Shown here in pieces: positions 13,462 through 61,090 of a DNA stretch of 64,000 nt. Both the position numbers and the translations under genes were made by a program. The notes beneath the pieces were generated by a model. That model worked only from the letters and a program-made list of their open reading frames with translations, made no database searches and was not told the origin of the DNA. The number at the start of each line of letters is the position of its first letter. Within the stretch, counting starts at the first letter, position 1. Source of the DNA: Bacteroidota bacterium (GTDB lineage Bacteria; Bacteroidota; Bacteroidia; Chitinophagales; LD1); contig JAPLES010000005.1 in the NCBI GenBank assembly GCA_026391075.1, positions 4,533 to 68,532 on the forward strand. The letters are read 5' to 3'.

Positions 13462-14259
13462 TCAGATTTTTTCAAAAAGATTTTTTTCGACCCATCCCAC
13501 TTTGCCATCGGCTAAACGGATTTTATTCCAGTTGCCTACATGGTCAAGAATTTGGAATTTAATTCCCTCATGAATAGTGAAGAGGTCGGTGCCGTTGGCA
13601 TCTGGGGCGCTTTTTACGTTTACGTTTTCTGTAAGCAAAATAGCTTCGCATGAATTTTCTTCGGCATTACTTTGTTTAATGGCAAGCGAAACAGAGGTAA
13701 TAGAAAGGAGCAGAAACAAGATGCCAAGAAATAAAACGAATCCTTTTCTGGCAACGAAAATATAAACAGCAAACACTATCAACGCCACCCATACAAACCC
13801 AAGCGCAAAAACTCCCCAACCCTTTGATGATTGTGATGTGGTGAAATTGTTCCAGTTAGAAACAATAGCCATTTGCGGAACGGGAATTAGTTTGTCAACT
13901 ACTTTCAGTTGTGCAATTTTTAAATTGTGTGTAATGTCTTCATCTTCCGGAGCGAGTTTATGTGCGCGCTCAAAGTTCAGAATGGTTTTGCCGGTATTGT
14001 TCAACTTGAAATAACAATTGCCTAGGTTGTAATAAACTTCGGCTGTGCGATAACCCTGCGAAATAATTTTTCCGTAAGAAGCCTGCGCTTGTTCAAATTG
14101 ATTGGCTTTGTATTGTGCCGAAGCAGTTCTGTAAAGTTCGTTTGCGCTTTGTGCGGAGACATTAGACGTTAGACACAAGACTATAGACAATACAAAAAGC
14201 AGAGATGCCTTTCTGTAGAGTGATAACTGTTGTTTGTCAACTTTTATTTCCTGTCTCAT
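13462..14259 (-). CDS. batE: BatE-like protein (signal peptide, TPR repeats, TM segment, C-terminal SH3-like domain)
   Basis: TPR-like segments YRTASAQYKANQFEQAQ..YYNLGNCYFKLNN, hydrophobic segments, and the C-terminus GNWNKIRLADGKVGWVEKNLF (bacterial SH3-like). It lies directly downstream of the batD-like gene. Confidence 0.7.
   Translation of the reverse strand: MRQEIKVDKQQLSLYRKASLLFVLSIVLCLTSNVSAQSANELYRTASAQYKANQFEQAQASYGKIISQGYRTAEVYYNLGNCYFKLNNTGKTILNFERAHKLAPEDEDITHNLKIAQLKVVDKLIPVPQMAIVSNWNNFTTSQSSKGWGVFALGFVWVALIVFAVYIFVARKGFVLFLGILFLLLSITSVSLAIKQSNAEENSCEAILLTENVNVKSAPDANGTDLFTIHEGIKFQILDHVGNWNKIRLADGKVGWVEKNLFEKI
14156..14190. repeat. Heptad array, AGAC flavour (5 units), inside the batE signal-peptide codons
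   Basis: The + strand reads GAGACAT TAGACGT TAGACAC AAGACTA TAGACAA. Positions 14163-14188 are the inverted partner of 14260-14285. Confidence 0.85.
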
Positions 14260-14291
14260 GTCTATTATCTTGTGTCTATCGTCTAAACTCT
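14250..14291. repeat. Heptad array, GTCT flavour (6 units), filling the batD-batE spacer and the first batE codons
   Basis: The + strand reads CCTGTCT CATGTCT ATTATCT TGTGTCT ATCGTCT AAACTCT. It runs from the batD stop (14290-14292) across the batE ATG (14257-14259). Confidence 0.85.
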
Positions 14292-16161
14292 ATTTCACTT
14301 CATCTTCCAAATCTGCCATCAAATTCATAGCGGCATCATAGTTTTGTTTCATCTCTCCACCTTCCCCTACCGGTGAATACAAAGCGAGTTCGCAGGTGCT
14401 CAACAATACTTTCAGTTTCGAAATGGTTTCAGCCTTTGCGTTTCTAGCAAGCAACTTTTCTTCTACATTATCTTTCGAAAGTTCAGCCATGTCAATATTC
14501 AACTTGTCGCCTAAGTAACCCCAGATAGCGCGCGAAACTTCATCGTAGAAATTTTTCTTGTCACTCTTTGCCAAATGTTTTGCAGCAATGCTCAATCTCT
14601 TCTTTGCCAACTTGAGTGCTCTTCTTCTCTTAGTTCCTATTACATCAGCAGCAAGGTCTTCGTTTCTTCTTCTCGCCACCACCAAACCTATGAACAATAA
14701 AAACGGAGCCGAATACATCGCCACAAATCCGGCCGAGCCAAAAAATGAATTCCCTTTTTTGAATTCAGGTGTTGTTGTTTTAATGTAGCGAATATCCTGA
14801 CCAACCAATGAAACTTCTTCCTTGCTTACACCTGTCGCTCCGTTATTTGCATTTACATTTTTAGATGGTTCGCCAGTCACCTTCACTGTAAACTCAGGAG
14901 AGTTTATGCTAAAATATTTTGCGCTTGCTGGTTCGAACCATGAAAATGTTTTCGATTCAATTTTAAAATCACCGGGCTGGCGCGGAATGATAAGGTAGTC
15001 ATACTGTTTCGTTCCACTCATGCCACCGGCACTATTGCTGATGTTTTCTTTTGTTTTAGGGTCATACACTTCAAACTCCACAGGAAATTTAAGTGCAGGA
15101 GCATCTACAAATTTCAAATTTCCTGTGCCCGAAATTTTCAATGTGTATGTAATAGGCTCATCGGTTTTTGTTTCTTTGTTTGAAAGCGAAGATTCAAACT
15201 TGTAACTACCTACGGCTCCCGAAAAATCTGCGGGCTTGCCGTTTTCAGGAAGTTCTTTCACGTTCACTACTGCCGAAGAAGTTTTTAAAGTCATGGGCAC
15301 TTGCTGTATTTGCCCGAAAAAACTGCCAAAGAAATTTCTTTGATTGGAACGTACCTGCACTTGCACCACTGTTGAAAGTTCACATGAAGCCACCGGCAAA
15401 GCACCGGCACGTTGCGGATACAAATTGTATTTCAGAATTTCAATCGTGTTGTATTGCTTGCCGTTTATAGTTTCTATGGTTGGTCTGCGCTTAGGGTCAA
15501 GCTCCACTTCCTGACTCCAGTAGCCATCAAAAGCAGGGGCTTTTGTTACGTTGAAACCCGAAAGATTTTGGCGGAAATAAAGTTTGTATGCCGCGGTAAG
15601 CATTTCGCCTTTGTAAACCGAATTTTTATCTACCACTAATTTCATGAATACCTCATCCTTCAATTGTTTTTCTACATCGGCATTGTTGGTTTGCGGCTCT
15701 TCTTCTTCCTCTTGTCCTTGATTAAAGAAAGGATCATCAAACGGGTCAAAAGGATTTTGTTGTCTTCGTTGTTGTTGCTGTTGTTGTGCCACAGCTGCAG
15801 TTACTTCAATAGAAATTTCGTTGCTTTCCATAGTAACTCCACTCACTACAATACTCGCTTTGCCTATTTTAAACGCGCCTTGATTTTTTGGACGAAGAAT
15901 ATAATTGTAAGTAACACTTTGCGTTACGTTGCCATTTACCCATTGCCTACTAGTGGAAGTATTTGGCCCACCCAACACTTGGAAATCTGAAACAGCAGGC
16001 GGTTTCAAATTTGTTCCATTTCCGTTTTCAATAGTTAAGCTAAGTTGAAAATTAGAATTTAGCGGAACTGATTTAGGAGCAGAGGCATAAAATTTTGCTT
16101 GCGCAGAAGACGATAGACAATAGACGATAGACAATAGAAACACCAATGCAAAAATTCGCAT
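14290..16161 (-). CDS. batD: BatD-like oxygen-tolerance protein
   Basis: Signal peptide [22 protein letters not shown]. The N-terminal repeated Ig-like modules read F.A....V..N..F.L...I....-..P..SDFQVLGGP..S.S. A Gln/Glu-rich linker, a C-terminal TM segment and a basic patch (ARRRNEDL) follow. Start set to ATG 16161; the long ORF reaches 16242. Confidence 0.75.
   Translation of the reverse strand: MRIFALVFLLSIVYCLSSSAQAKFYASAPKSVPLNSNFQLSLTIENGNGTNLKPPAVSDFQVLGGPNTSTSRQWVNGNVTQSVTYNYILRPKNQGAFKIGKASIVVSGVTMESNEISIEVTAAVAQQQQQQRRQQNPFDPFDDPFFNQGQEEEEEPQTNNADVEKQLKDEVFMKLVVDKNSVYKGEMLTAAYKLYFRQNLSGFNVTKAPAFDGYWSQEVELDPKRRPTIETINGKQYNTIEILKYNLYPQRAGALPVASCELSTVVQVQVRSNQRNFFGSFFGQIQQVPMTLKTSSAVVNVKELPENGKPADFSGAVGSYKFESSLSNKETKTDEPITYTLKISGTGNLKFVDAPALKFPVEFEVYDPKTKENISNSAGGMSGTKQYDYLIIPRQPGDFKIESKTFSWFEPASAKYFSINSPEFTVKVTGEPSKNVNANNGATGVSKEEVSLVGQDIRYIKTTTPEFKKGNSFFGSAGFVAMYSAPFLLFIGLVVARRRNEDLAADVIGTKRRRALKLAKKRLSIAAKHLAKSDKKNFYDEVSRAIWGYLGDKLNIDMAELSKDNVEEKLLARNAKAETISKLKVLLSTCELALYSPVGEGGEMKQNYDAAMNLMADLEDEVK
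16108..16142. repeat. Heptad array, AGAC flavour, containing an exact 14-nt tandem duplication
   Basis: The + strand reads AGACGAT AGACAAT AGACGAT AGACAAT AGAAACA. GACGATAGACAATA occurs twice in tandem (16109-16122 and 16123-16136). This stretch encodes LSIVYCLSS of the BatD signal peptide. Confidence 0.9.
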
Positions 16162-16344
16162 ACCTGAAAATTCAAAAATGGATTTGCGCCACTTCGAATT
16201 TTGGACTTCGCACTTCAAACTTGTAACTATTCTCTTTCTCATTGGGCTCGCGAATATAATATGAACTTACGCCCGATAGCTACGATGGGTTAGCCCGTTA
16301 AATTTTTTTAGCAAAGAAGCATTGAGATTGAGCGAAGCTTGTCT

Positions 16345-16830
16345 TTATAGTTCTTCAAAAATTCCGGTTCCTTTGTTTTTTCGCACGTTGTTCCAGGTGA
16401 AATATTTTCCGTTCATGGCTACATAAACTCCAGCCGGTAATGTTTGAACAAATGCCAGGGCGCTTCCCAAATTAAATAAGCCGTCAGAACTTCCAAACTT
16501 GTAAGGAATCATAGCACCGGTAAGCACAATTGTTTTATTCAAATTAGCTAAGCCTAAAACTTTGGCGGTTTGTTCCATGGTATCTGTTCCGTGTGTAATT
16601 ACAATTTTTTCTTCCTCGCATTGTTGGCAATGGCTAACCATCAATTCGCGGTCGGCATCTTTCATTTCTAAACTGTCAATCATCATCAGCGTTCTTATCT
16701 GCACTTTCAGATTGCTTCGCCCTAATTGGAGAATTTCGGGCAAGTGAGTGTCTTTGAAAAACAGTTTTCCATTCAGCTCATCATACTCTTTATCGAAAGT
16801 TCCACCGGTAATTAAAATTTTTATTGCCAT
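16345..16830 (-). CDS. Short asparaginase-domain protein
   Basis: ILITGGTFDK (asparaginase N-terminal Thr motif region) and ITHGTDTMEQTA (second Thr motif). Start set to ATG 16830 (MAIKILITGG). Confidence 0.65.
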   Translation of the reverse strand: MAIKILITGGTFDKEYDELNGKLFFKDTHLPEILQLGRSNLKVQIRTLMMIDSLEMKDADRELMVSHCQQCEEEKIVITHGTDTMEQTAKVLGLANLNKTIVLTGAMIPYKFGSSDGLFNLGSALAFVQTLPAGVYVAMNGKYFTWNNVRKNKGTGIFEEL

Positions 16831-16873
16831 GGCGCGAAGAAAGAAAAAATGAAGTGGTTTCATCAAACTCGAT

Positions 16874-16902
16874 TTTGTCATCTCAATATTTTCCTATATT
16901 CG
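16874..16902 (+). promoter_or_regulatory. Possible Bacteroidota sigma-A promoter for the TonB-dependent receptor gene
   Basis: TTTG at 16874-16877, a 17-nt spacer, then TATATTCG at 16895-16902, which is a one-base deviation from TAnnTTTG. It lies about 40 nt upstream of ATG 16943. Confidence 0.25.
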
Positions 16903-16942
16903 ACACCACAAATCCCTCTAAACAGAAACCCCTAACAAAACC

Positions 16943-19834: not shown

Positions 19835-19856
19835 AATTATTTAGAAAAGTTTTTAC

Positions 19857-19897
19857 AAATGCCATCTCGCTAAAAAAGCAGATGGCATTTGTTTTTG
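19857..19897 (+). terminator. Rho-independent terminator after the TonB-dependent receptor gene
   Basis: AAATGCCATCT (19857-19867) pairs with AGATGGCATTT (19880-19890) around a 12-nt loop, followed by GTTTTTG. Confidence 0.7.
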
Positions 19898-20010
19898 TAG
19901 CCAATATTCGTACTACTGAAGATTAATGTTTTGATGAAGCAGAAAGGCTTTCGATGGCAATTACATTGCCGTCAATTGTATAAACAAAAAAATATGCCTA
20001 TCCACATTCA

Positions 20011-20151: not shown

Positions 20152-20217
20152 AACAATCGGATTATCATTCAAAAAAAGAATAGTGTAATTGATTAGTGCG
20201 AAGTCAATCTAGTTTTG

Positions 20218-23293: not shown

Positions 23294-23330
23294 TATTTAT
23301 TTTTTAAGTTTGAAGGCGTGAATATAAAAC

Positions 23331-23365
23331 AGACGACAGATGTTAGACGTTAGATAGAAGATAAA
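23331..23365. repeat. Heptad array, AGAY flavour (5 units), in the 5' leader of the 1168-aa OMP gene
   Basis: The + strand reads AGACGAC AGATGTT AGACGTT AGATAGA AGATAAA. Positions 23337-23364 are complementary to 23464-23491. Confidence 0.85.
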
Positions 23366-23396
23366 TGCAAAAACAAAACCTTCCGCTTGGCTTTTA

Positions 23397-26300
23397 ATGA
23401 TTTATTTCAAGAACAAAATATTTCTCTTTAATACTTTCAATTCCCGTTTCTGGTTGTTGTCTATTGTCTATTGTCTATCGTCTACCATCTGCTCAGCTCA
23501 GGGCAACGAAAAATTTGGACAAAATCGCGTTCAGTATAAAGACTTCAGTTTTCAGTATTACGAGAGCGACAACTTCATAACTTACTTTTACATGGGCGGG
23601 CAGGACATTGCCAAGTATGTTATCAAATCTGCTGAAGACAATGCCGATGAAATTTCCAAGCTTCTTGATTTTCATTACAAGCGCAAAATTGACATCATTG
23701 TTTATAACAACATCAACGAACTCAATCAAACCAATATTGGTATTTACGACCAAGGGCAAAACCCGGGCGGCACCATAAAAATCCCCGACAGTAAATTGTT
23801 TGTTTACTTCAATGGCGACCATCGCCATCTCGACAAACAAATTCGCGAAGGCATTGCAAAAATTTATGTCAGCAAAATGATATTGGGAAGTTCTGTAGGC
23901 GAAGTTTTATCCAACGCGGTTTTGCTCAACCTGCCCGACTGGTATAAAGTAGGTTTGGTAAAATACATTGGCGAACCTTGGAACAGCGATATGGAAGACC
24001 GCCTTCGCGATGGTATCATGAGTGGCCGATTTACGCGTTTGCGCAAACTTGAAACCGATGAATCTATTTTTGTGGGGCATTCCATTTGGCATTACCTAGA
24101 AGAGGTGCACGGCAAAAGCGCGGTGAGCAATATTCTTTATCTCACACGAGTAAACCGAAGTGTTGACAACGGATTTATGTTTGTGTTGGGCACCAATCTT
24201 TCAGAAACGTTGCAACAGTGGTATGAATATTATCTCAATCGTTTTAGCAGCGAAGCCAAACTAACCTCTATGCCCGATGACAGTTCGTTATTAAAGGCAA
24301 AAATCAAAAAGAACATTGATTACTACCAAACCAAACTAAGTGCCGATGGCAAATTTGTGGCATATGCGAGCAATGATATGGGTAGATATAAAGTTCATCT
24401 ACTGAATACGGAAACGCAAAAGAGCATCGTGATTTTTAGAGGAGGATGGAGAACCAATACCATTTTTACCGACCAATCAATCCCTTTGCTCGCTTGGGAA
24501 CCTTCGGGTAAAAAACTGGCGATTATCAGTGATAAACGTTCCAATATTTTCATTCGGTTCTATGATACCGAAACAAAAAAAATGGAGAAAAACCCCGTGC
24601 GCAAATTTCAAAAAGTGGTGAGCTTTAGTTATGTAGATTCAAAACAATTGGTGATGAGCGCCATTCAAAACGGGCAAACCGATATTTATCTTTACAACGT
24701 TGCATCAACCACTACCCGAAAACTGACAGACGATTATTTTGATGATTTGTATCCAGCCTATATTGAAGCGGACAGTGTGCGCGGAATTATGTTTGCCAGC
24801 AATCGTGAAGATGATACACTACGACCATTGCGTTACGAATCGCAACGGGTCAACAATCGTCAACTCGATTTATTTTTTTATGATTTAAATGCCAGTCAGA
24901 ATTTTCTGTATCGCGTTACTTCTACTCCATTTGCTGATGAATCCTTTCCGCAAAATTTTAGTGAAAAAGAATTTTGTTTTTTAAGCGAAGAGAACGGAGT
25001 GCGCAATAGGCACATTGGTCATTTTGAAACTGTGTTTGATCACAATGAAAAAAATATTCGTTTCGTTTCGAAAGAAACCGGAGAGCTTGATTCTGTTCAG
25101 GTGCCGGCAAATATTTCTGCTACCAGCATGCTTGATCCTGCAAACGATCAACTGAAAGATACTTCCATTGCTAAGGTTTATAAACTGGGTGGTGCTACCG
25201 CGGCTTATACGAACTATACGCACAACATACGCGAGCAAACAATAATTTCGCAAAAAAATCTTGCGCTTGATGTTTTTAAAATCAAAAACAAAATTCAATT
25301 GCGCAAATACAATTTGCAATCAACTGGTACTACCAGCGAACCTGTTTTTGATTACATGATACAGTTGCAGAAAAAAGAAATTGAAGCTACCAAAGCCCAA
25401 GAAAAAAAAGAAGAACCTGCTGTAAAATCCTTTGTAGAAAAATACGATTCGCTAAAAGTGAATCGAGGTAATCGTCAGTTCGATTTTCAAAGCGAATTTG
25501 ATTACGGCATAAAACTTTTCGATTGGGATTCGGCTTCTGCGTTGAAATTAAAAAGCACTAACGAAGGTTATGTGTTTCGCTTTTCGCGCGTGCGCCCATA
25601 CTTTATTCGCTTTATGGTTGACAAAGTAATTGCTCAAGTAGATAACAGCATTATGGTTACGCGCTATCAGCCATTTGACCCTTACAATCCGCAGTTCAAT
25701 ACACAACCGGTGAGTTTTATGTTCAAGTTTGGCATTACTGATTTGCTCGAAAACCATAAACTATATGGCGGATTTGCTTTGCCATTTAGCGGCATCAATA
25801 GCAATTCGCAATATTTTATAACCTACGAAAATTTGACGAAGCGGCTCGATACTAAATTCACCTTCTTCAGAAAATCGTATGGCAGCACGGCTACGGGCAG
25901 GCTTCCGTTTACGAATACGATTTTACCTGCAGATTATTCTTTGCCGTATAGCATTAAGACAAACTATGCCGAGTTGCAATTCAATTATGCGCTCGATGTG
26001 TTGAGCAGTTTACGTTTTAGTTTTTCGTTTAGAAACGACAAAGTAGTTTACAAATCAATCGATACCTTTTCATTACATCTGCCTAGCATTTCTGATAACT
26101 GGTTGTTCTTTCGGGCTGAATATGTTTTCGACAATTGCATGGAAGTGGCTACCAACATTCGCTATGGAACGCGCTTCAAAGTTTTTGGCGAAGTGCATAA
26201 AGAATTTCCTACCAAAAACAAAAATGTTTCAGACCGATTTGATTTTCCGGTGGTACAGTTCAACAATAAAGTGCTGGGTGTGTTTGGATTTGATTTGCGC

Positions 26301-26903
26301 CACTACCAAAAAGTTTACAAACAAATTATTTGGGCAAGTCGTTTAGCGGCTGGTGTTTCCTTCGGCAATGCAAAAATGATTTACTACTTGGGTGGAATTG
26401 ACAACTGGATTACCGGGCCGGGTTTCGATAAGTTTGACCGAACCACACCCATTAATCTCAATAACAATTACGCGTTTCAAACGCTCGCTACTCCGCTGCG
26501 TGGCTTTAAACAGAATGCCCGTAATGGCGATAAGTTCATTGTGTTTAATACCGAATTGCGCATTCCCATTTTTGCCGCACTCATTCGCGCACCCATACGA
26601 TCCGAGTTGATTCGAAATTTTCAAATCCTCGCCTTCTTTGATGCAGGCACTGCATGGGAAGGTGCTTCGCCTTGGTCGGGCAGCAATCCGCTTTACAACG
26701 AATCGGTGCCCAATGTTCCCAATAATCCTTCGGTTATTGTACACGTTCAAAAATACAAAACACCAATAGCCATGGGCTTTGGCCCGGGCTTGCGCACTTC
26801 TATTCTTGGTTATTTTATTCGCTTCGATACTGCATGGGGTTACGACACAGGAGAAGTGAGTGAGAAGCCAAAATATTATTTTTCGTTTGGTTTAGACTTT
26901 TAA
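23397..26903 (+). CDS. Large outer-membrane protein with N-terminal TolB-like (PD40/WD40-like) beta-propeller repeats and a C-terminal Omp85/surface-antigen-type beta-barrel
   Basis: Signal peptide ..[18 protein letters not shown]40-like repeats are [23 protein letters not shown] and [24 protein letters not shown]. The C-terminal region has [37 protein letters not shown] and the terminal beta-signal ..YYFSFGLDF. The stop lies 2 nt before the lptB ATG. Confidence 0.65.
23456..23490. repeat. Heptad array, GTCT flavour (5 units), encoding the signal-peptide core of the 1168-aa protein
   Basis: The + strand reads GTTGTCT ATTGTCT ATTGTCT ATCGTCT ACCATCT, which translates as [12 protein letters not shown]. 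Confidence 0.9.
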
Positions 26904-31688: not shown

Positions 31689-31865
31689 CGCAAGCGAATG
31701 TAATAACTGTTTTATAAAGACATTACGCTGCGCGATGATTACGCAGATAAATACATTGGATAGCTACAATTAGATAATGCAAAAATCAGAAATCCGTTTG
31801 CGTTTGTCTTATCGGTGAAATCAACGGCTGTTATCGGTGCAATCATCGCGAAGCGTAATATTTTT

Positions 31866-32750
31866 ATGTTCGCGCCCATGATTTCAGGCGAGCGGAATAT
31901 TATTCTTCAAAGCAAACATGGTCGTCCTTTTTTGGCAGATGTTTTTTATAAGGCAGATGGAAAGCAAAAACCGCTTATCATTTTCAGCCACGGCTTTAAA
32001 GGGTTTAAAGATTGGGGACCGTTTAATTTGGTGGCCGAAAAATTTGCCGAAGGAGGTTTTGTTTTCGTCAAATTTAATTTCTCGCATAACGGAACAACTA
32101 TTGATTCTCCCATAGATTTTGCCGACCTCGAAGCTTTCGGCAACGATAATCTTTCTATAGAAATGGATGATTTAGGTGTGGCGATTCATTGGGTTTGCTC
32201 CAATCAGTTTCCGGTTTCATCAAATGAATTTGATTTAGAAAAAATTTATCTCCTAGGTCACAGCCGCGGTGGTGGAATCTGTATTTTGAAAACCAAAGAA
32301 GATGCGCGGGTTAAAAAAGTTTGCACGTGGGCGAGTGTAAATGAATTCAGCAAATATTGGACAGAGGAGGAATTAGAAAAAATAAAACGCGATGGATTTG
32401 TGTTGGTGGGCAATGCGCGCACCAAACAAATGATGCCTATAAAATGGCAGTTGTACGAAAACTATTTCGCCAATCTTCCTCGCCTTTTTGTGCCTGATGT
32501 GGTGGAACAAATGCAAATTCCATTTTTAATCATTCATGGCACAAAAGATGAAACCATTCCAGTGCAAGCGGCAATTGAAATGAAAGGTTGGAACAAAAAT
32601 GCTGAACTGTTGTTGATAGAAAACGGCAATCATAATTTTGGCGGCAAGCATCCTTACACAGAGAATCAGTTGTCAAGCGATTTGGAAACTGCCGTTAAGG
32701 CAAGTGTTGAATTTATGCTTCGCAATGATTACACCGATAACACCCAATGA
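31866..32750 (+). CDS. Alpha/beta-fold hydrolase
   Basis: IIFSHGFKG (oxyanion region), nucleophile elbow LLGHSRGGG, IIHGTKDE (Asp) and GNHNF (His). Start set to ATG 31866. Confidence 0.7.
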   Translation: MFAPMISGERNIILQSKHGRPFLADVFYKADGKQKPLIIFSHGFKGFKDWGPFNLVAEKFAEGGFVFVKFNFSHNGTTIDSPIDFADLEAFGNDNLSIEMDDLGVAIHWVCSNQFPVSSNEFDLEKIYLLGHSRGGGICILKTKEDARVKKVCTWASVNEFSKYWTEEELEKIKRDGFVLVGNARTKQMMPIKWQLYENYFANLPRLFVPDVVEQMQIPFLIIHGTKDETIPVQAAIEMKGWNKNAELLLIENGNHNFGGKHPYTENQLSSDLETAVKASVEFMLRNDYTDNTQ

Positions 32751-35361: not shown

Positions 35362-36024
35362 ATGGAAACAGTAGTAATCAATGCCACGCCAAGAACCGAA
35401 TTAGGAAAGAAGGCTACGCGGGCACTGCGCAAGGCAGGAAACATTCCTTGCAATCTTTATGGCGGAAAAGAAACGCTTAATTTTTATGCTCCGGTAGGAG
35501 AGTTTCGCAAACTGATTTACACGCCCGACTTTAGAGCGGCTGAAATCAATTTGAACGGAAAAACATACAAAGCCTTTGTAAAAGAATCGCAGTTTGAGCC
35601 GGTGAAAGACGCTATGCTTCACCTCGATTTTCAAGAGTTTGTTGACACCGTAAAAGTGAAAGTTTTTATTCCGCTTAAGCTTAACGGAACCCCGAAAGGA
35701 ATTATCTCGGGAGGAAGATTAGAGGCGCCTTTCAGAAAATTACATGTGTTGGCTTTACCAAAAGACATTCCTAATGTGATTGAAATTAACGTTGCTGATA
35801 TGGACCTAGGCGATGTTAAGAGAATCAAAGACATTCAGATTCCGGGAGTCACACTTTTACATGCTCCCGCTAATCCGTTTGCAAAAGTTCAAATACCTCG
35901 TACAGTTGTTGAAGAAGTTCCTGTTGCTGCTGCTACACCTGCTGAAGGTACTCCTGCTGCTGCCGGTGCTCCTGCTGCTGCCGCTCCTGCTGCCGATGCA
36001 AAGAAGGATGATAAGAAGAAATAA
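35362..36024 (+). CDS. rplY: 50S ribosomal protein L25/general stress protein Ctc
   Basis: L25 N-terminal domain (RTELGKKATRALRKAGNIPCNLYGG), a Ctc-type second domain, and an Ala/Pro/Lys-rich tail. Sits in the conserved prs-ctc-pth order. Confidence 0.88.
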   Translation: METVVINATPRTELGKKATRALRKAGNIPCNLYGGKETLNFYAPVGEFRKLIYTPDFRAAEINLNGKTYKAFVKESQFEPVKDAMLHLDFQEFVDTVKVKVFIPLKLNGTPKGIISGGRLEAPFRKLHVLALPKDIPNVIEINVADMDLGDVKRIKDIQIPGVTLLHAPANPFAKVQIPRTVVEEVPVAAATPAEGTPAAAGAPAAAAPAADAKKDDKKK

Positions 36025-36100
36025 AAGCCACGTTTCCTTCCCGCTGAGACAGACGGGATGAAACAAAATCCTCAACTAAGGAGAGGACTTTAAATACAAA

Positions 36101-36130
36101 GCCCTCGCAAGAAATTGTGAGGGCTTTTTT
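36101..36130 (+). terminator. Rho-independent terminator after rplY
   Basis: GCCCTCGCA (36101-36109) pairs with TGTGAGGGC (36116-36124) around a 6-nt loop, followed by TTTTTT (36125-36130). Confidence 0.7.
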
Positions 36131-36133
36131 ATT

Positions 36134-36161
36134 TACTATTGCCTATTCACTATTCACTTTA
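36134..36161. repeat. Heptad array, CACTATT flavour (4 units), directly upstream of the pth start
   Basis: The + strand reads TACTATT GCCTATT CACTATT CACTTTA, then GACA-ATG (ATG at 36166). Confidence 0.8.
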
Positions 36162-36165
36162 GACA

Positions 36166-36729
36166 ATGAGCTTTTTAATTGCAGGTCTCGGAAATATTGG
36201 CGAAGAATATGAAAACACCCGCCACAACATCGGCTTTAAAGTAGCTGATGAATTAGCGAAGTTGAATAGGGTATCGTATCAGTCAGAGCGTCTCGCTTTT
36301 TATGCTGAATACAGAAGCAGAGGAAAAAATATTTATGTGATTAAGCCAACTACCTACATGAATCTTTCGGGTAAAGCGGTTCGGTATTGGATGAACGAAT
36401 TGAAAATTCCACAACAAAATATTTTGATTGTGTTAGATGATTTGGCAATTCCTTTTGGCTTAATACGCATTCGTCAAAAAGGAAGTGATGGCGGGCATAA
36501 TGGATTAAAAGATATTGACCTTACCCTCGGCAATAGCAATTATGCGCGATTGCGTTTTGGTGTAGGTAATGAATTTGCAAAGGGCAAACAGGTAGATTAT
36601 GTATTGGGGAAATGGAATGCAGAAGAAAATAAAACACTGAACGAGCGAATTAAAGTATCCTGCGAAGCAGTCAACAGTTTTATGTTTGAAGGTATTGATA
36701 GAGCCATGACGAAATACAATAAGAGTTGA
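36166..36729 (+). CDS. pth: Peptidyl-tRNA hydrolase
   Basis: LIAGLGNIGEEYENTRHNIGF, YMNLSG, and GSDGGHNGLKDI. Length 187 aa. Confidence 0.92.
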   Translation: MSFLIAGLGNIGEEYENTRHNIGFKVADELAKLNRVSYQSERLAFYAEYRSRGKNIYVIKPTTYMNLSGKAVRYWMNELKIPQQNILIVLDDLAIPFGLIRIRQKGSDGGHNGLKDIDLTLGNSNYARLRFGVGNEFAKGKQVDYVLGKWNAEENKTLNERIKVSCEAVNSFMFEGIDRAMTKYNKS

Positions 36730-51301: not shown

Positions 51302-51336
51302 AATAGTGAATAGTAAATAGTGAATAGTAACAGACG
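51302..51336. repeat. Heptad array, TAGTRAA flavour, with an exact 14-nt tandem duplication directly upstream of the membrane-protein start
   Basis: The + strand reads AATAGTG AATAGTA AATAGTG AATAGTA ACAGACG. AATAGTGAATAGTA occurs twice in tandem (51302-51315 and 51316-51329). On the gene-sense strand this is TACTATT CACTATT repeated twice, ending 11 nt before TTG 51290. Confidence 0.9.
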
Positions 51337-55243: not shown

Positions 55244-55264
55244 AAAAATTGGTCTGAAATTTTT

Positions 55265-55300
55265 AACCCCGCGAGGCAACTGTCAGCGGGGTTATTTTTT
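55265..55300 (+). terminator. Rho-independent terminator after rpoD (possibly shared with the convergent gene)
   Basis: AACCCCGC (55265-55272) pairs with GCGGGGTT (55286-55293) around a 13-nt loop, followed by ATTTTTT. It overlaps the stop codon of the minus-strand gene at 55292. Confidence 0.65.
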
Positions 55301-55777: not shown

Positions 55778-55861
55778 AGCACGCTAAAGTAAAATTGTAT
55801 TGTTTGCCTTTAGCCCCTTTTTGTTTCATCCCGCCTTACGCGGAAAGGGGGTTGGGGGTGG

Positions 55862-56890
55862 TTATTCTTCTAACGCGGGCTCCCGGTTAATTATTGCGAG
55901 AAGAATTAAGGAAATTACACCTGCTACCATTACCAAAGCAGTTTGCGCTGTCCATTGCACCAAACCGAAAGAAATAGCGGCACTTCCTACTACACCATAA
56001 AGTCCTAAAACAATTTGAATGAAGATGGGGTAAAGTCCTAGACCACCGGGAGTGAGTGAAAAAGATACTCCGCTAAAAAACAAACAAACACCCGCTGCCA
56101 TTAAACTCAAACCCGCAGTTTCGGGAAACATTTGAAAACCCACGTAACCCATTAACCAATACAAAGTCCAAATCATTATAGTGTGAAACAACAACAGAAA
56201 AGGATTTTTCACATCCTTGATTGAAATGATGCCCTTCATAAAACCACTTAGCTTTTCTTTCAAATCGGCCGCAATGTTTTCAAATCCTTTTGCACGTATC
56301 TGAGAACCGATAAAAATTATAAGACCTAAAGTAACTGCTATCAACACTCCGTACTTCACCATAGGATCAATTTGGTTCTTCTGAATAATTTCAGCAAAAG
56401 TTGTTTTAGAGTTCTGCGCTATTTGTTCATACAGCAAAAAGAATTTATCGTGCTCACCAATAATTAGTATGAGTACCACCACACCTAAACAAATCACATC
56501 TAACAATCGCTCGAGCACCATAGTGCCAATGGCTTTATCCAAAGGAATTTTTTCATAGCGCGCTAACACACCGCAACGGCTCACTTCGCCAAGGCGCGGA
56601 AAAAAGAGATTTAGAAAATACATAATCATCACACTCAAAAATGTGTTCCAAAATCCGGGATTGTAACCTAGAGAGCGAAGAAGTAATCTCCATCTTTCGC
56701 TTCTGAAATAATTACTTACTAAACCAATAATGGGTGGAAGTACTACCCAAAGGTAGTCGGCTCGTTTTATGTCATCGGCTACGTGTTGCTTATCACTCGG
56801 ACTCATTTGCCCAACAAACCAATAAACAAGAGCCACTCCTATTCCGAGCGAAACAACGAGTTTGATAATGTTGCCGAGATGCTTTTTCAT
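55862..56890 (-). CDS. Lysylphosphatidylglycerol-synthase-TM-region-like (flippase-like, UPF0104) membrane protein
   Basis: 342 aa with about 8 TM helices. The N-terminus KLVVSLGIGVALVYW.. and the motif region FFPRLGEVSRCGVL are as seen in this family. Confidence 0.6.
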   Translation of the reverse strand: MKKHLGNIIKLVVSLGIGVALVYWFVGQMSPSDKQHVADDIKRADYLWVVLPPIIGLVSNYFRSERWRLLLRSLGYNPGFWNTFLSVMIMYFLNLFFPRLGEVSRCGVLARYEKIPLDKAIGTMVLERLLDVICLGVVVLILIIGEHDKFFLLYEQIAQNSKTTFAEIIQKNQIDPMVKYGVLIAVTLGLIIFIGSQIRAKGFENIAADLKEKLSGFMKGIISIKDVKNPFLLLFHTIMIWTLYWLMGYVGFQMFPETAGLSLMAAGVCLFFSGVSFSLTPGGLGLYPIFIQIVLGLYGVVGSAAISFGLVQWTAQTALVMVAGVISLILLAIINREPALEE

Positions 56891-56920
56891 TTAGCGGTGA
56901 ATTCAATCACCTCGTTTTTC

Positions 56921-57271
56921 TTAATCAGTAATTTGATTGGAAGAATTTACGTGAACTGTAACTGGTTTATGAACTTTGTATTCATCCATACTCACCATGC
57001 AATACGAAATCACAATGATGATATCACCCACAGAAACTTTACGCGCTGCAGGACCATTCAAACAAATAGTTCCTGAGCCGCGTTCACCTTTTATAACGTA
57101 AGTTTCTAAACGTTCTCCGTTGTTCACGTTTACAATTTGCACGCGCTCATGCTCTACCAGATTTGCGGCTTCCATTAAGTTTTCGTCAACAGTAATACTG
57201 CCAATATAATTAAGGTCGGCCTGCGTTACAGTAACGCGGTGAAGTTTCGATTTGTAAACGGTTATAAACAT
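56921..57271 (-). CDS. panD: Aspartate 1-decarboxylase
   Basis: [23 protein letters not shown] contains the Gly-Ser self-processing site. Length 116 aa. Confidence 0.92.
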
Positions 57272-57321
57272 AGCGGGCGAAAGTAAAATAATTTGAGAAT
57301 CAGAATCAGCGCAAAGAAATT

Positions 57322-59313
57322 TTAGTCTTTCATTTTAATCAGCAATGTATTTGCCTCTACAAAAGATTTCTCTGCCACAAAAACTTCTTCCACTTCACCA
57401 TCGGTGTGCGCTTCAATAGTGGTTTCCATTTTCATTGAACTCATTACGAGCAATCCTTTGCCGCTTTGAATTTTGTCTCCTGCTTTCACTAACACCTTCA
57501 CAATTTCTCCCGGCATTGGTGCTATGTAACCACCTTTCACAATTTCAGTTCCAGGTTCAACAAAACGCGGAGCTTCTTTCAATTTAAATGTTCCAGCCGA
57601 TGGATGCTGTATAAAAATGTCGCGATTATTTTGCGCAATAAAAAATGATTGACGATGATTTTCTATAGAGAAATTAACCTGGTTATTTCTAACACTCACC
57701 AACTCTACAGAATAGTTTTTGCTATTGTTCGAAACTTCAAACTGATTGTTTTGCTTGTAACGGTATTCCAGTTTTATTTTCTGCTCAGCAAATTCAATTT
57801 CAAAAATTTGTGCCGAGTAAAAAATATTTCTCCAGCCATTCAACAAATGCGAAGCTTTTTCGTTTTGCTTTCGCTTTGACCAATCAAACAAAAGTGCAGC
57901 AATAGCCATTTCGTTTATTTCGCTTTCAGTCGGAGTTTTTTTGTAAGAAGAGAAATCGCGCTCAATCAATTTGGTATCGAAACTTCCGTCTATAAAATTT
58001 TTATGTTGAAGAAGTTCCTTCTGAAAATCTTTGTTTGTAGTAACACCCAATACAGCATATTTATCTAAGCCCAACAACATTTTCTGAATGGCTTCTGTTC
58101 TGTCTTTACCCGTTGCAATTACTTTAGCCACCATCGAATCGTAATGAACAGGAATTTCAGAACCGGTTTGCATTCCGCTATCAAAGCGCAAACCTTTTAA
58201 GCAAGGCTCGCTGTAAAAAAGTATTTCCCCAGTAGCAGGAAAGAAATTATTCTCCGCGTCTTCTGCACAAATTCTGCACTCAATAGAATGTCCTTGCTGT
58301 TTAATTTCATCTTGCTTTACCGAAAGCGGTTTGCCTTGCGCCACGTCAATTTGCATACGAACCAAATCCAATCCCGTAGTTTCTTCAGTAACCGGATGTT
58401 CTACTTGCAAGCGGGTGTTTACTTCTAAAAAGAAAAATGATTTTTCTTCTGCGCTATACAAAAACTCAACCGTACCTGCTCCTGTATATTTTACGGCAAA
58501 AGCTAATTGCACTGCGGCTTTTCCCATTTGCACACGCAACTCATTGGTAAGCGAAGGCGATGGACTTTCTTCAATTACTTTTTGGTAACGCCTTTGCATG
58601 GAGCATTCGCGCTCAAACAAATGAACATAGTTGCCGTGTACATCACCAAAAATTTGAATCTCGATATGCTTTGCCTTCGGAAAATATTTTTCAATCAAAA
58701 CAGTACTGTCACCAAAACTTTTTTCGGCTTCGCGTTTTGCAGCATCAATTGCCGCTTCGCTTTCTGCAGCAGAATTTACAATGCGCATTCCTTTTCCACC
58801 GCCACCAGCACTGGCTTTTATCAAAACAGGGAAACCGATTTTCTCTGCTTCTTTTTTTAATGTGGCAGTACTTTGGTCTTTACCATTATAACCGGGCACG
58901 GTTGGAACTTTCGCTTTTATCGCAATTTCTTTCGCACCAATTTTTGAACCCAATTGTGTAATTACATCAGCCGAAGGACCAATGAAAATAATTCCTTCAT
59001 CGGCAAAGCGTTTTGAAAACGTTGCGTTCTCTGAAAGAAAACCGTAGCCCGGGTGAATAGCATTTGCACCGGTTTGTTTAGCCGCAGCAATAATTTTATC
59101 CTGTACCAAATAACTTTCACCGGCTGCATTTCCTCCAATACAAATAGCCTCATCGGCTCGTTTTACAAACAGTGCATTTTTATCTGCATCGGAAAAAACA
59201 GCTACTGTTTTTATTCCCATTTCCGCTGCTGTGCGAAAAACACGAATAGCAATTTCGCCTCGGTTGGCAACTAATATTTTTTTGATTGTTTGCATTTGTC
59301 TATTGTCTAACAT
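57322..59313 (-). CDS. Acyl-CoA carboxylase alpha subunit (biotin carboxylase plus biotin carboxyl carrier domain; methylcrotonyl-CoA-carboxylase-like)
   Basis: [17 protein letters not shown]-grasp [26 protein letters not shown], and the C-terminal biotinylation motif [14 protein letters not shown]. The start could be the second ATG at 59295. Confidence 0.88.
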
Positions 59314-59336
59314 CTAATATCTGCTTCTTACATCCT
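59295..59336. repeat. Heptad array, GTCT/ATCT flavour (6 units), spanning the junction of the two carboxylase genes
   Basis: The + strand reads TTTGTCT ATTGTCT AACATCT AATATCT GCTTCTT ACATCCT. It covers the alpha-subunit start (59311-59313), the 14-nt spacer and the beta-subunit stop (59328-59330). Confidence 0.8.
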
Positions 59337-60926
59337 AAAAACTCCAAAGCCTTCGGCACCTTTAAATTCTGTTTGATGAATCACATCTAAACATAACTTC
59401 AAATAATTTCTGGTTTCGCGTGGGTCAATCACTCCATCATCCCAAAGTTGTCCGCTGGCATACCAAGCGTTGCTTTGTTTTTCAGCTTCTTTAACCATGT
59501 ACTCGGACATTGCTTTTCCTTGTTCTTCATCATATTGAATTCCCGATTTTTCTGCTGCCTGTCTGCCTATGGTTTGCATTACTCCTGCTAATTGGTCGGG
59601 ACCCATGACTGCAATTTTTGAATGAGGATAGCTGAAAAGAAATCTAGGTTTATAAGCGCGACCACACATGGCGTAATTGCCCGCGCCATAACTTGCTCCT
59701 GTAATAATGGTGATGGCAGGAACCGTAGAATTGCTCACCGCGTTAATCAATTTTGCTCCGTGCTTTATAATTCCTTCTTCTTCATATTTTTTTCCAACCA
59801 TAAAGCCGGTGATGTTTTGAAGAAATAAAAGCGGTGTATTATTTTGATTGCAAAGCTGAATGAAGTGTGCGCCTTTGTTTGCCGCTTCTGAAAACAAAAC
59901 TCCATTGTTGGCTATGATGCCTATTTGATGGCCATTAATTTTTGCATAACCCGTTACCAAGGTACTTCCATATGCAGGTTTAAATTCAGAGAAATCACTT
60001 CCATCAACTATTCGCGCAATTAATTCGCGCTGGTCGAAAGGAATGCGCACATCGGCAGAAACGACACCTAAGATTTCATCGTTGTCGTATTTTGGTTCTT
60101 GTATTTCTATCGTCTCTTGTCTATCGCCTATCGTTTGTTTTAAATTCGAAACAATTTCTCTTGCCAATCTTATTCCATCCATCTCATCTTCGGCCATGTA
60201 ATCAGAAACTCCCGAAACGGTGCTGTGCATTTTTGCTCCTCCCAAACTTTCTTCATCGGTAACTTCGTTGGTTGCCATTTTTACGAGTGGCGGACCGGCA
60301 AGAAAAACCTTGGCTTCGTTCTTCACCATGATGACGTAATCGCTCATACCAGGTATGTATGCACCACCAGCAGTGCTGCTTCCGAATACAATAGAGATGG
60401 TAGGAATTCCCAATTTGCTTCGTTGCGTAATGCCTCTGAAATTTGCTCCACCGTAATTAAAAATCTTTGCTTGTTCAGGTAGATTTGCTCCGGCACTTTC
60501 TACCATGTTTATCATGGGCAACTTATTTTCGGTGGCTATTTCGCCAATGCGCAAACCCTTTTGCAGGGTAGCATAATCAATAGCTCCGCCTTTAATCGTT
60601 CCCACGTTTGAATTGATCATGCACATTCTACCGCTTACAAAACCCATTCCTGCAACCACCGTTCCACCAGTGCCAAAACCATCGCCTCCCCATCCTGCAA
60701 AAGGACAAAGCTCCATGAAAGGAGAATCTACATCGAGGAGCATTTCAATTCTTTCGCGAGCTAAAAGGCGACCTGCTTTTTTAGTGCGCGCCAGATATTT
60801 TTCTTCGCCTTGAAAGAGTGCTTCTTTTTGTTTGGCTTCGAGCTCAACTATTTTCTCCTTCATCAAGGCTAAGTTGCGCTGATAGCTTTCGGAGTTGCGG
60901 TTTATTTTTGATTGAAATACTGACAT
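59328..60926 (-). CDS. Acyl-CoA carboxylase beta subunit (carboxyltransferase; methylcrotonyl-CoA-carboxylase-like)
   Basis: Two crotonase-like carboxyltransferase halves. Motifs include GRMCMINSNVGTIKGG, FGSSTAGGAYIPGMSD, NNGVLFSEAANKGAHFIQLC and GASYGAGNYAMCGRAY. Length 532 aa. Confidence 0.88.
   Translation of the reverse strand: MSVFQSKINRNSESYQRNLALMKEKIVELEAKQKEALFQGEEKYLARTKKAGRLLARERIEMLLDVDSPFMELCPFAGWGGDGFGTGGTVVAGMGFVSGRMCMINSNVGTIKGGAIDYATLQKGLRIGEIATENKLPMINMVESAGANLPEQAKIFNYGGANFRGITQRSKLGIPTISIVFGSSTAGGAYIPGMSDYVIMVKNEAKVFLAGPPLVKMATNEVTDEESLGGAKMHSTVSGVSDYMAEDEMDGIRLAREIVSNLKQTIGDRQETIEIQEPKYDNDEILGVVSADVRIPFDQRELIARIVDGSDFSEFKPAYGSTLVTGYAKINGHQIGIIANNGVLFSEAANKGAHFIQLCNQNNTPLLFLQNITGFMVGKKYEEEGIIKHGAKLINAVSNSTVPAITIITGASYGAGNYAMCGRAYKPRFLFSYPHSKIAVMGPDQLAGVMQTIGRQAAEKSGIQYDEEQGKAMSEYMVKEAEKQSNAWYASGQLWDDGVIDPRETRNYLKLCLDVIHQTEFKGAEGFGVFRM
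60102..60136. repeat. Heptad array, GTCT flavour (5 units), inside the inter-domain linker codons of the carboxyltransferase gene
   Basis: The + strand reads TATTTCT ATCGTCT CTTGTCT ATCGCCT ATCGTTT, which encodes KQTIGDRQETIEIQ on the minus strand. Confidence 0.7.
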
Positions 60927-60973
60927 ACGGATTTGTGTGAAATTTCTTCGGTCAAATAAAGCGGATTTTTAAG

Positions 60974-61029
60974 AATAGTGAACTCTTACTTAACAAGGAC
61001 GAGGGACGAGAGCGAGAGACGAGGGGGAT
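60974..61029. repeat. Heptad array: one TAGTG unit followed by GACGAGR units (the purine-rich arm)
   Basis: In 7-nt phase the + strand reads AATAGTG AACTCTT ACTTAAC AAGGACG AGGGACG AGAGCGA GAGACGA GGGGGAT. Confidence 0.75.
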
Positions 61030-61059
61030 GCAAATACAGGTTTTGCCTTTCTGTTTTAA

Positions 61060-61090
61060 CTCTTGTCCTTCGACCCTCGCCCTCGCCCCT
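61060..61090. repeat. Pyrimidine-rich heptad arm, the approximate inverted partner of 60995-61027
   Basis: The + strand reads CTCTTGTCCTTCGACCCTCGCCCTCGCCCCT. Its reverse complement is AGGGGCGAGGGCGAGGGTCGAAGGACAAGAG, compared with the left arm AAGGACGAGGGACGAGAGCGAGAGACGAGGGGG. Confidence 0.7.

Follow-up and report, generated by a model that had tools for sequence, protein, structure and literature searches.

The 64-kb stretch of DNA analyzed here (the window; positions 4,533 to 68,532 on the forward strand of contig JAPLES010000005.1, GenBank assembly GCA_026391075.1, a Bacteroidota bacterium of the Chitinophagales) carries short, heterogeneous heptanucleotide tandem arrays that concentrate at translation starts. 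The arrays belong to a known class, the short tandemly repeated repetitive (STRR) and TAACTGA-type repeats. With slightly better than even confidence, we interpret them as products of in-register tandem duplication that are retained as mRNA-level elements of translation initiation or coupling. The mRNA-level role taken by itself is a tentative assignment that falls a little short of even. It is favored by the position of the arrays right at AUGs, by the excess of complementary partners, by pairing that outlasts changes of the unit, and by one non-coding hairpin arm and one set of AGA cores that are more conserved than neutral change would predict. The window, with a G+C content of 40.7%, is the 64-kb sample from its source genome, and its nearest relatives are uncultured freshwater Chitinophagales (Bacteroidota) metagenome-assembled genomes. 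It was compared with related or distant Bacteroidota loci designated L001–L008, L026–L087, L088–L094, L095, L096, L098, and L099.

A lag-identity scan of the window (28-nt scan window, threshold of at least 19 matches, expectation from third-order Markov shuffles) detected 10 arrays of period 7 compared to 0.15 expected, and the maximum in any shuffle was 1. Periods 4, 5, 8, 10, 11, and 13 gave 0–1 arrays each; period 14 is twice 7 and was exempted. Tandem Repeats Finder (TRF) called period 7 at 14157–14192, 16108–16138, 23457–23484, 36130–36158, 51302–51328, and 60997–61025. The TRF calls and the lag-7 scan put the size of an array at 4–6 tandem 7-nt units. Two arrays are exact 14-nt duplications, 16108–16138 (2.2 copies, 100%) and 51302–51330 (2.1 copies, 100%), in agreement with the original prediction, which had been made from the letters of the window alone. 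It had also held that the arrays are nonrandom, which the clear excess over Markov-shuffled sequence bears out, and that coding constraint cannot generate a 7-nt period, which is upheld. The arrays it listed are present, except that 60974 is a single unit and not an array. The lag-7 scan adds two arrays that were missing from that list, 10007–10050 before scpA and 16191–16237 in the batD leader or N terminus. The same arrays recur in the independent assemblies L002, L003, and L008, which excludes an assembly artifact. Chance patterns or assembly artifacts can draw on individual weak sites, 60102 and 60974 among them, and on nothing further. The excess of period 7 and the sharing of arrays between assemblies already refute this explanation, and we give it next to no probability.

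The units are of several types. AGAY-type units dominate the window (7 arrays, 33 units), and at least four other unit types are also present. The consensus of the 33 AGAC-type units is AGA-(C/T)-(A/G)-(A/T)-T. The arrays had been thought to form one composite family whose flavors abut each other, an idea that the comparison of loci does not support. The unit types have only the period in common, and orthologous sites hold unrelated GGTCAGT, GAAGTCG, GAAATCA, GGGCAGT, and TTCAAAR units. The claimed abutments are single AGAC or TAGTG words.

The concentration of arrays at translation starts was assessed with 34 arrays from the window and ten close loci. Twenty-four of them lie within 100 nt of a gene start, and random positions do so in 16% of cases (binomial p = 2.6e-12; arrays at orthologous sites are not independent of each other), which upholds the placement originally claimed. 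Six of the seven non-coding arrays stop 1–7 nt short of an ATG (chance 0.12 each; p = 2e-5). Four of the six array-adjacent ATGs open conserved proteins (ScpA, BatE-like, Pth, and biotin carboxylase), and the remaining two open 10-codon candidate upstream open reading frames (uORFs). The intercistronic spacer is filled from stop codon to start codon by two of the arrays, 14260–14289 and 59296–59327. This array-level test replaced lag-7 identity averaged over all 133 starts (0.304 at −50 to 0 compared to ~0.28 for other lags), a small excess that was too diluted. As a separate observation, four of the six array-adjacent ATGs read ATGCAA compared to 3 of 49 gene starts.

The orientation of the AGAC-type units follows a rule. 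Units in the mRNA sense are located in leaders. Antisense units, (TYGTCTA)n, lie inside the first 40 codons and are translated over three units as L-S-I-V-Y-C-L. This type of stretch is the signal-peptide hydrophobic core of BatD, the BatE-like protein (LLFVLSIVLCLTSNVSAQS), and a tricorn-like protein. The arrays at 14156, 16108, and 23456 lie in coding N-termini and are translated as signal peptides, a property that had been missed. Relatives likewise code signal peptides with other units, for example (TTGTCAA)4, which reads LSIVNCQ in L005. Arrays also occur in an internal transmembrane segment (L003 10507–10567, L004 1835–1876). The orientation rule follows from coding capacity: the sense units are A-rich and contain TAG or TAA, and the antisense units are T-rich and hydrophobic in all three frames.

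Twenty window proteins were scanned against Pfam, and the gene labels BatD, BatE-like, Pth, carboxyltransferase, and biotin carboxylase given earlier were confirmed. BatD is encoded at 14290–16242 and the BatE-like protein, with TPR and SH3_3 domains, at 13462–14259, both on the minus strand; ScpA was labeled in the same scan. The 1168-aa protein encoded at 23397–26903 had been labeled an outer membrane protein. Its homologs carry Tricorn_N, Tricorn_2nd, and PD40 domains instead. It looks like a secreted relative of tricorn-type proteases, and nothing marks it clearly as an outer membrane protein.

Among the listed arrays, six make up three inverted pairs, which are predicted to fold into hairpins A, B, and C. 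The original prediction was silent on pairing. An inverted (reverse-complement) partner within 220 nt is significant for 13 of the 34 arrays, and a direct partner for 1 of 34. A start-enclosing inverted repeat with at least 16 of 20 positions paired was present at 6 of 203 starts, compared to 0 of 205 positions in mid-gene and 2 of 204 at stops. The 5′ arm of hairpin B, like that of hairpin C, is followed by an ATG at a distance of 1 nt. Unpaired arrays show no folding beyond that of shuffled sequence (z = +0.1 to +1.5). Rfam (gathering thresholds) and tRNA/tmRNA scans of the entire window returned no matches, so the hairpins do not belong to any RNA family known so far.

Hairpin A, at the batD/batE-like junction, is located inside an operon and inside coding sequence. 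Its 5′ arm (14259–14291, minus strand) is a sense TAGAC-type array that runs from the batD stop codon (14292–14290) to the A of the BatE-like ATG (14259). Its 3′ arm (14157–14189, minus strand) is a (NNGTCTA)n array that is translated as the BatE-like signal-peptide core LLFVLSIVLCLTSNVSAQ. The predicted fold has 29 long-range pairs, a free energy of −48.8 kcal/mol, and z = −6.9. The window, L008, and L003 all keep the 29-bp stem, in which one pair has changed on both sides (A-U to U-A) as a compensatory change and none is broken. Bulges take up the other changes in the arms, and the loop has a different sequence in its middle. Between the window and L003, the non-coding 5′ arm matches at 30/33 positions, compared to 57% for the third codon positions in the adjacent gene (p = 2e-5). 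The BatE-like protein is 65–84% identical to its homologs in seven GTDB species genomes and 93% identical to one on a JGI metagenome contig.

The junction itself is hypervariable. Conserved protein flanks, …DLEDEVK and AQSANELYK…, bracket a heptamer-array segment with TAGAC/GTCTA units in the window, L008, and L003, TTGAC/GGTCA units in L001, TTCAAAR/YTTTGRT units in L006, TTCGGAAA in L004, and GAAGTCG or GAAATCA units in L002 and L005. BatD and the BatE-like protein are separate open reading frames (ORFs) in the window, L001, L003, L004, L006, and L008, and are fused in frame in L002, L005, and L007. The fusion or split point is the heptamer-array segment (near locus position 10000 or 3000 in L002, L005, and L007). 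The arrays mark sites where neighboring genes fuse or split between relatives. All six split-gene orthologs fold at the BatE-like start with z ≤ −2, and for three of the four unit types the upstream array is predicted to pair with the signal-peptide-coding array and to enclose the start; the L004 stem lies wholly upstream of the signal peptide. A comparable fold was absent from the batE-like start of the three fused-gene and two distant orthologs.

Two further arrays lie at the 5′ end of batD. The batD signal-peptide array (16108–16138, minus strand) consists of (TYGTCTA)4, was called by TRF with period 14 and 100% matches, and is translated as the BatD signal-peptide core. No inverted partner was found for this array (p = 0.35). 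The batD leader array (16191–16237, minus strand) was detected by the lag-7 scan; it is GAAGTSC-type and lies in a hypervariable N-terminal extension or leader of batD. Orthologs carry GAAATCA, CAGAAAG, or period-8 AATTTTCG arrays at this site. The period-8 (AATTTTCG / CTTTCGCA)n arrays lie in the BatD N-terminal extension of L001 (~5470–5510) and L002 (~8110–8150), and the close loci show a mild excess of period 8, at 7 arrays per 111 kb.

Hairpin B lies at the start of the tricorn-like gene, downstream of a conserved box. The box, TTAAGTTTG (23304–23312, plus strand), is 18 nt upstream of the hairpin and was read by eye and from its conservation. It is followed ~8 nt later by AATATA, and the two elements (23304–23325) are kept in five orthologous intergenic regions, including those of L095, L096, L098, and L099, where the downstream leaders differ. 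By comparison with TAnnTTTG, which we take to be the Bacteroidota −7 consensus, the TTAAGTTTG region is probably a −7 promoter box and start region. This putative promoter would place the array and hairpin B at the 5′ end of the mRNA. The 5′ arm of hairpin B (23331–23379, plus strand) contains an AGAY-type array in the 5′ untranslated region (UTR; 23331–23364) that ends exactly at ATG 23365. The 3′ arm (23446–23498, plus strand) contains a (TTGTCTA)n array (23456–23492; TRF, 95% matches) that is the signal-peptide core of the tricorn-like protein. The predicted fold has 40 long-range pairs at −36.4 kcal/mol (z = −2.8), and 0 of 200 shuffles were as stable. Five in-register units align between the tricorn-like 5′ UTRs of the window and L095, and their AGA cores are identical at 15/15 positions compared to 7/20 for the spacers (p = 5e-5). 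Of hairpin B, these 5′ array cores alone persist, and in L095 only. ATG 23365 opens a possible 10-codon uORF, MQKQNLPLGF* (23365–23397, plus strand), whose stop overlaps the main ATG (UAAUG). The uORF was read from the sequence and is speculative; its GATAAATGCAAAA is kept in L095.

Hairpin C lies in the divergent carboxyltransferase/lysE intergenic region. Its 5′ arm (60995–61022, plus strand) is a (GACGAGR)n array, and its 3′ arm (61063–61091, plus strand) is a (YCTCGYC)n array. The predicted fold has 24 long-range pairs at −40.2 kcal/mol (z = −3.2). The loop contains a second possible 10-codon uORF, MQIQVLPFCF* (61028–61060, plus strand), which is equally speculative and whose ATG is 1 nt after the 5′ arm. 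The uORF peptides of hairpins B and C are alike, and both start 1 nt after the respective 5′ arm; the likeness may be chance.

Period 7 is also enriched outside the window. In ~720 kb of other Bacteroidota loci, it is the sole enriched non-triplet period, with 47 arrays (many of them redundant orthologs) compared to 1–3 arrays for periods 5, 8, 10, and 11. A metagenome scan with an alignment as query was too permissive and returned mostly gut Bacteroides BatE homologs, which were used as an outgroup and not as close orthologs. The queA/ABC-F spacer of gut Bacteroides (L026–L087) exists as (TAAATTA)n alleles or as (AGTGAAG)n + (GTTCAAA)n alleles, and both end at the ATG. Two of these alleles, in L032 and L083, differ by exactly one 7-nt unit (126 compared to 119 nt). 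In contrast, the unit number of the window arrays is the same in L008, L002, and L003, and L008 and L002 have 94–97% nucleotide identity. The gut Bacteroides arrays lie upstream of a conserved ABC-F ATPase gene, which offers genetically tractable hosts for functional tests. Examples of this spacer are L037 8800–8851, L032 8800–8925, L029, L045, L048, L081, and L050. Five Bacteroides loci have ~180–256-nt elements resembling miniature inverted-repeat transposable elements (MITEs), with terminal inverted repeats (CAAGTTTCGCA…), sitting inside the array.

A cis-acting role in initiation is proposed because the ribosomes of Bacteroidota disregard Shine-Dalgarno sequences and mRNA structure tunes their initiation. 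Bacteroidetes mRNAs are translated without Shine-Dalgarno pairing, their structure tunes initiation, and AUG is depleted near their starts (PMC6847099). The arrays would grow in place and in register in steps of 7, 14, or 21 nt; such growth by tandem duplication is supported by the exact 14-nt duplications and by the 7-nt difference that separates the L032 allele from that of L083. They would be kept, as part of the mRNA, at the 5′ ends of genes and almost nowhere else. The purine-rich sense units (AGA-Y-R-W-T) fill the leader or intercistronic spacer up to the AUG, and the antisense TYGTCTA units, translated in all three frames, supply the hydrophobic core of a signal peptide. Where both orientations surround one start, they are predicted to pair into a 24–40-bp hairpin that encloses the initiation region. 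Unpaired arrays may serve as a structure-free A-rich platform, whose AGA triplets, recurring at regular intervals, a single-strand-binding factor might read. Paired arrays would make initiation depend on opening of the stem by a terminating upstream ribosome, a uORF, a binding protein, or RNase III cleavage as in the hmw genes of Haemophilus influenzae. At hairpin A, the ribosome terminating on batD could open the stem, which would tie translation of the batE-like gene to the end of batD and mimic the fused state in relatives. The uORFs are candidate stem openers at hairpins B and C. On this reading we infer that the arrays would be transcribed, and that they may affect translation and be bound by a factor.

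A more specific version of this interpretation, which we consider doubtful, is a Bacteroidota-specific module for initiation without Shine-Dalgarno sequences. The 7-nt-spaced triplets at the AUG would be read by a multimeric single-stranded RNA-binding factor or by the ribosome itself, the complementary signal-peptide array would be a built-in antisense arm, and opening of the start-enclosing hairpin would switch or couple the synthesis of secreted proteins. If this is true, one sequence acts as regulator, spacer, and signal peptide, and the cyanobacterial and Beggiatoaceae heptamer repeats, unexplained since 1990, would also gain a function.

Several observations weigh against an mRNA-level role. 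Most arrays are not conserved among relatives, and this turnover fits a near-neutral by-product equally well. The array at 10007 is absent in L002, and the array at 59296 is absent at the equivalent operon junction of seven relatives. The density of arrays is uneven within the clade, with just 3 arrays in the 137 kb of L088–L094. Hairpin B is not formed in L095, L096, L098, and L099 (69–76% identity), and the comparison of AGA cores with spacers comes from one sequence pair. Hairpin C is an indel relative to L088, in which 141 nt are swapped for 21 unrelated nt between identical flanks. The compensatory support for hairpin A is one base pair, and the identity of its arm in the window and L003 could reflect recombination instead of selection, since the closer relatives L001 and L002 carry other units. 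The unit sequences are too diverse for one sequence-specific factor. The provision of stops in all three frames was considered as the purpose of the sense arrays and was dropped, since it is true of two of the seven array-bearing leaders.

A serious rival is a near-neutral by-product, which we regard as possible, if on the unlikely side. Slippage by 7 nt would produce arrays that survive where constraint is weak, in leaders, signal-peptide, transmembrane, and n-regions, and linkers. Stops and hydrophobicity would filter their orientation, and the hairpins and core conservation would be incidental or recombinational. In its favor, units differ at orthologous sites, arrays are gained and lost between close relatives, and they also occur in the internal transmembrane segment of L003 and L004 and in an enzyme linker (60102, L088, and L093). 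The exact 14-nt duplications and the 7-nt allele difference point to slippage, and a general heptamer excess in prokaryotes, with slippage as the suggested cause, has been published (PMC4692102, PMC4679880). Neutral growth fits less well with the same-unit inverted partners, which are far commoner than direct partners (13/34 compared to 1/34), and with the maintenance of complementarity despite unit change between orthologs. The far stronger conservation of the non-coding arm of hairpin A than of synonymous sites, the conservation of all 15 AGA core positions compared to 7 of 20 in the spacers, and the arrays that stop 1–7 nt before an ATG also speak against it. The inverted pairs could alternatively be MITE-like or repetitive extragenic palindrome (REP)-like hairpins that insert beside starts, with the heptamer period derived from terminal repeats. 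The indel at hairpin C between identical flanks, the patchy hairpin A junction that does not track overall relatedness, another dispersed hairpin repeat in L003 and L088 (CCCCTAAATCCCCTAAAGGGGAC), and the MITE-like insertions into a heptamer array in gut Bacteroides would all suit a mobile element. We consider it quite unlikely. The loops of hairpins A, B, and C are unrelated, as are the arms of C to those of A and B, which means that there is no repeated element family. The indel at hairpin C shows no target-site duplication, the proteins scanned included no transposase and no RAYT-like protein, and more than half of the arrays are unpaired. The MITE idea was rejected for want of shared loops, target duplications, and copies.

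The remaining explanations place the arrays under a DNA-level switch or a leader-binding protein. The arrays would act on DNA as contingency loci in which 7-nt slippage shifts the reading frame of secreted proteins, as invertible segments, or as heptad operators for a DNA-binding regulator. Non-triplet repeats inside signal-peptide coding regions, the fusion or splitting of BatD and the BatE-like protein at the array among relatives, inverted repeats that flank start codons, and precedents for heptad promoter repeats (bioRxiv 10.1101/2021.05.14.444153; hmw, PMC12721329) are compatible with this. We judge it improbable all the same, since arrays of 4–5 imperfect units are short and poor slippage substrates and copy number is unchanged between L008 and L002 at their 94–97% nucleotide identity. 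The orientation of the loops is alike in the window, L002, L003, and L008 (a small sample), their 40–69-nt length is short for site-specific inversion, and a 7-bp spacing sets successive sites on different faces of the duplex. A multimeric antiterminator of the HutP or TRAP type, binding (U/G)AG triplets with 4-nt spacers, is very unlikely. HutP, which is known from Bacillota, reads UAG-N4 and TRAP reads GAG/UAG-N2–3 in leader RNA, and the arrays resemble such sites in having a conserved triplet at fixed leader spacing, here AGA-N4. The sense arrays 14259–14291, 23331–23364, and 59296–59327 read YAGA-N3, and the periodic AGA conservation in L095 is the pattern expected of a triplet-reading protein. 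However, these three are the only arrays that read (Y)AG-N4 in the mRNA sense, so the HutP-type spacing proposed in the original prediction does not extend to the others, which read GUCUA or UUCACUA or are UAG-free. The HutP requirement is two sets of three UAG with 4-nt spacers; the sense AGAC-type arrays read C/U/A/G-AGA-N3. In the mRNA, half of the AGAC-type arrays have the antisense form (GUCU) and are translated, and GACGAGR, NNNAACC, TTCACTA, and GAAGTSC units have no sense-strand UAG. Unlike HutP and TRAP sites, the arrays have no terminator/antiterminator context: none is part of an intrinsic terminator, the hairpins enclose starts without a U-tract, and the unpaired arrays fold no better than shuffled sequence. 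The genes concerned (the bat operon, the tricorn-like protease, acyl-CoA carboxylase, pth, and scpA) have no relation to one another or to the metabolism of histidine or tryptophan. The 20 window proteins scanned against Pfam included none with a HutP or TRAP domain. The triplet idea survives in the weaker form that a periodic triplet may be selected, as the AGA cores shared with L095 suggest.

Records of heptamer repeats near starts go back to 1990 in cyanobacteria and were later extended to Beggiatoaceae, Xanthomonas, and a few Bacteroidetes, and no function has been accepted for them. The window adds three regularities in a phylum without Shine-Dalgarno use: arrays end at the AUG, their complement codes a signal peptide, and start-enclosing hairpins keep their predicted pairing as the units change. 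The closest described system is the TAACTGA repeats of Beggiatoaceae, cyanobacteria, and five Bacteroidetes, which precede start codons by a few nt (MacGregor 2015, PMC4679880). Together with other heptamer direct repeats upstream of starts in those five Bacteroidetes, they contradict the earlier view that no description of such a family was known from this phylum. The forward strand of TAACTGA contains stop codons, the reverse strand reads LSVISYQ, and S1, Csp, or CsrA have been proposed as readers; no function is assigned, and translational regulation has been suggested (PMC4679880). The two systems share short sets of 7-nt units (2–6 there) that are mostly intergenic, forward, and just upstream of starts without a Shine-Dalgarno sequence. 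They also share a translatable reverse strand (LSVISYQ there, LSIVYCL here) at protein ends, and TAACTGA repeats are predicted to be unstructured (PMC4679880). In contrast to that system, the window has 6 single TAACTGA words and 0 tandems, its forward stops cover all three frames in 2 of 7 leaders only, and several unrelated unit types with a conserved core and variable spacer take the place of one dominant unit. The frequent signal-peptide cores from reverse arrays, the start-enclosing inverted pairs, and the Chitinophagales lineage also set the window apart.

The earlier comparison with cyanobacterial STRR repeats is apt. PMC4692102 and PMC4679880 cite a heptamer excess among longer prokaryotic simple repeats, attributed speculatively to polymerase slippage, and the former also cites three tandem heptanucleotides in Calothrix. 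Nostoc has heptamers near start codons (bioRxiv 10.1101/2022.06.06.494920). The cyanobacterial repeats resemble the window arrays in being tandem intergenic heptamers near promoters and starts, with several unit families per genome (PMC4692102; bioRxiv 10.1101/2022.06.06.494920), and TTCAAAA-type units occur in the relatives L006 and L032. STRR repeats are often long and nearly perfect with few families genome-wide, and they are not known to be linked to signal peptides or start-enclosing hairpins. The heterogeneous (GGGANTN)n repeats of Xanthomonas vary between close relatives and are occasionally inverted (Rehm et al. 2015, PMC4692102). Xanthomonas (GGGAATC)n/(GGGANTN)n and Nostoc GGGGA(Y)T repeats are like the window arrays in their conserved core, variable spacer, ~4 units, and intergenic location, in the variation of length and sequence at one intergenic site among close genomes, and in occasional inversions capable of forming a stem-loop (PMC4692102). 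They differ in being G-rich and studied as G-quadruplex formers (PMC4692102), whereas the window arrays are A/T-rich with no G-runs except in hairpin C, and many are translated.

The only heptamer array with an experimentally shown mechanism is that of the hmw1A and hmw2A genes of the pathogen H. influenzae. There, (ATCTTTC)n is one arm of a 5′-UTR hairpin, and RNase III cleavage sets expression (PMC12721329). Hairpins A, B, and C likewise are predicted to have a heptamer array as an arm of a long leader hairpin (29, 40, and 24 long-range pairs). The hmw arrays have at least 11 perfect, hypervariable repeats that give phase variation, and their other arm is a G-rich non-repeat (PMC12721329). 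In the window, the units are imperfect and number 4–5 per array, arrays make up both arms, coding sequence can supply the 3′ arm, and the unit number is constant in L002, L003, and L008. A heptad operator for a DNA-binding regulator has a precedent in TTTTGAT of the Vibrio ctx promoter. The CTCTT coding repeats of Neisseria opa genes are perfect and numerous and drive frameshift phase variation. Like them, the window arrays place a unit that is not a multiple of 3 inside a signal-peptide coding region, with hydrophobic residues in all frames; unlike them, the window arrays give no evidence of frameshift phase variation.

Five further arrays, all but one of them in leaders or spacers, lie outside hairpins A, B, and C. 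The carboxylase spacer array (59296–59327, minus strand) is AGAY-type, fills the 32-nt spacer from the carboxyltransferase stop (59328) to the biotin carboxylase ATG (59295), and is unpaired (z = +0.1). The linker array (60102–60141, minus strand), which the original prediction had listed, is present at a lower threshold of the lag-7 scan; it is a weak AGAC-type array when taken alone and lies inside the carboxyltransferase coding sequence, in an inter-domain linker (KQTIGDRQETIEI). The same linker carries GAAGACG arrays in L088 and GAAATCA arrays in L093. The scpA spacer array (10007–10050, plus strand; lag-7 scan) includes the units AAAACCC, AATAACC, CGCAACC, GGAAACC, and CGTAACG, ends 7 nt before ATG 10057, and folds no better than shuffles (z = +1.0). 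The pth array (36130–36165, plus strand; TRF) is (TATTCAC)4 followed by TAGACA and lies between a terminator-like hairpin (~36098–36128) and the pth ATG at 36166. In the predicted fold of this leader, the GC hairpin is upstream and the array is unpaired. The DUF6427 array (51302–51330, minus strand) is the second of the exact 14-nt duplications, with (TTCACTA/TTTACTA)4 in the spacer before a gene for a DUF6427 membrane protein, and is unpaired (z = +1.5).

The arrays also affect gene annotation. Gene callers run ORFs into them, as in the biotin carboxylase, where the call at 57322–59313 gives 663 aa from ATG 59313 compared to 657 aa from ATG 59295. This pitfall yields calls of 663 to 674 aa for a 657-aa enzyme. 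Database homologs of the biotin carboxylase have 631–698 aa, most of them 654–674 aa, and the protein is 91% identical to that of GCA_947481275.1. The interval between the 734-aa gene and scpA spans 9979–10056 in the window and 14172–14631 in L002. In this interval, L002 has an extra ORF of ~135 aa where the window has its array, and the two loci have the last ~20 nt ahead of the ATG alone in common.

Other repeats were seen in the same loci. The hairpin-forming repeat CCCCTAAATCCCCTAAAGGGGAC occurs in two genomes, at L003 ~7950–7975 and L088 9940–10075. The L088 copy has an inverted partner, CCCCCTTTAGGGGGTTGGGGG, inside the N-terminal extension of biotin carboxylase, and the pair encloses that start codon. 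The longest inverted repeat of the window (31714–31867; 64-nt arms, 70% complementary, 26 nt apart) lies in a divergent region ahead of the gene that starts at 31815, and a further ATGCAAAAA is found inside it. A CTG-rich repeat of period 3/15/18 at 35921–35999, the 3′ end of the ORF at 35362–36024, is an ordinary coding low-complexity tract that is unrelated to the heptamers.

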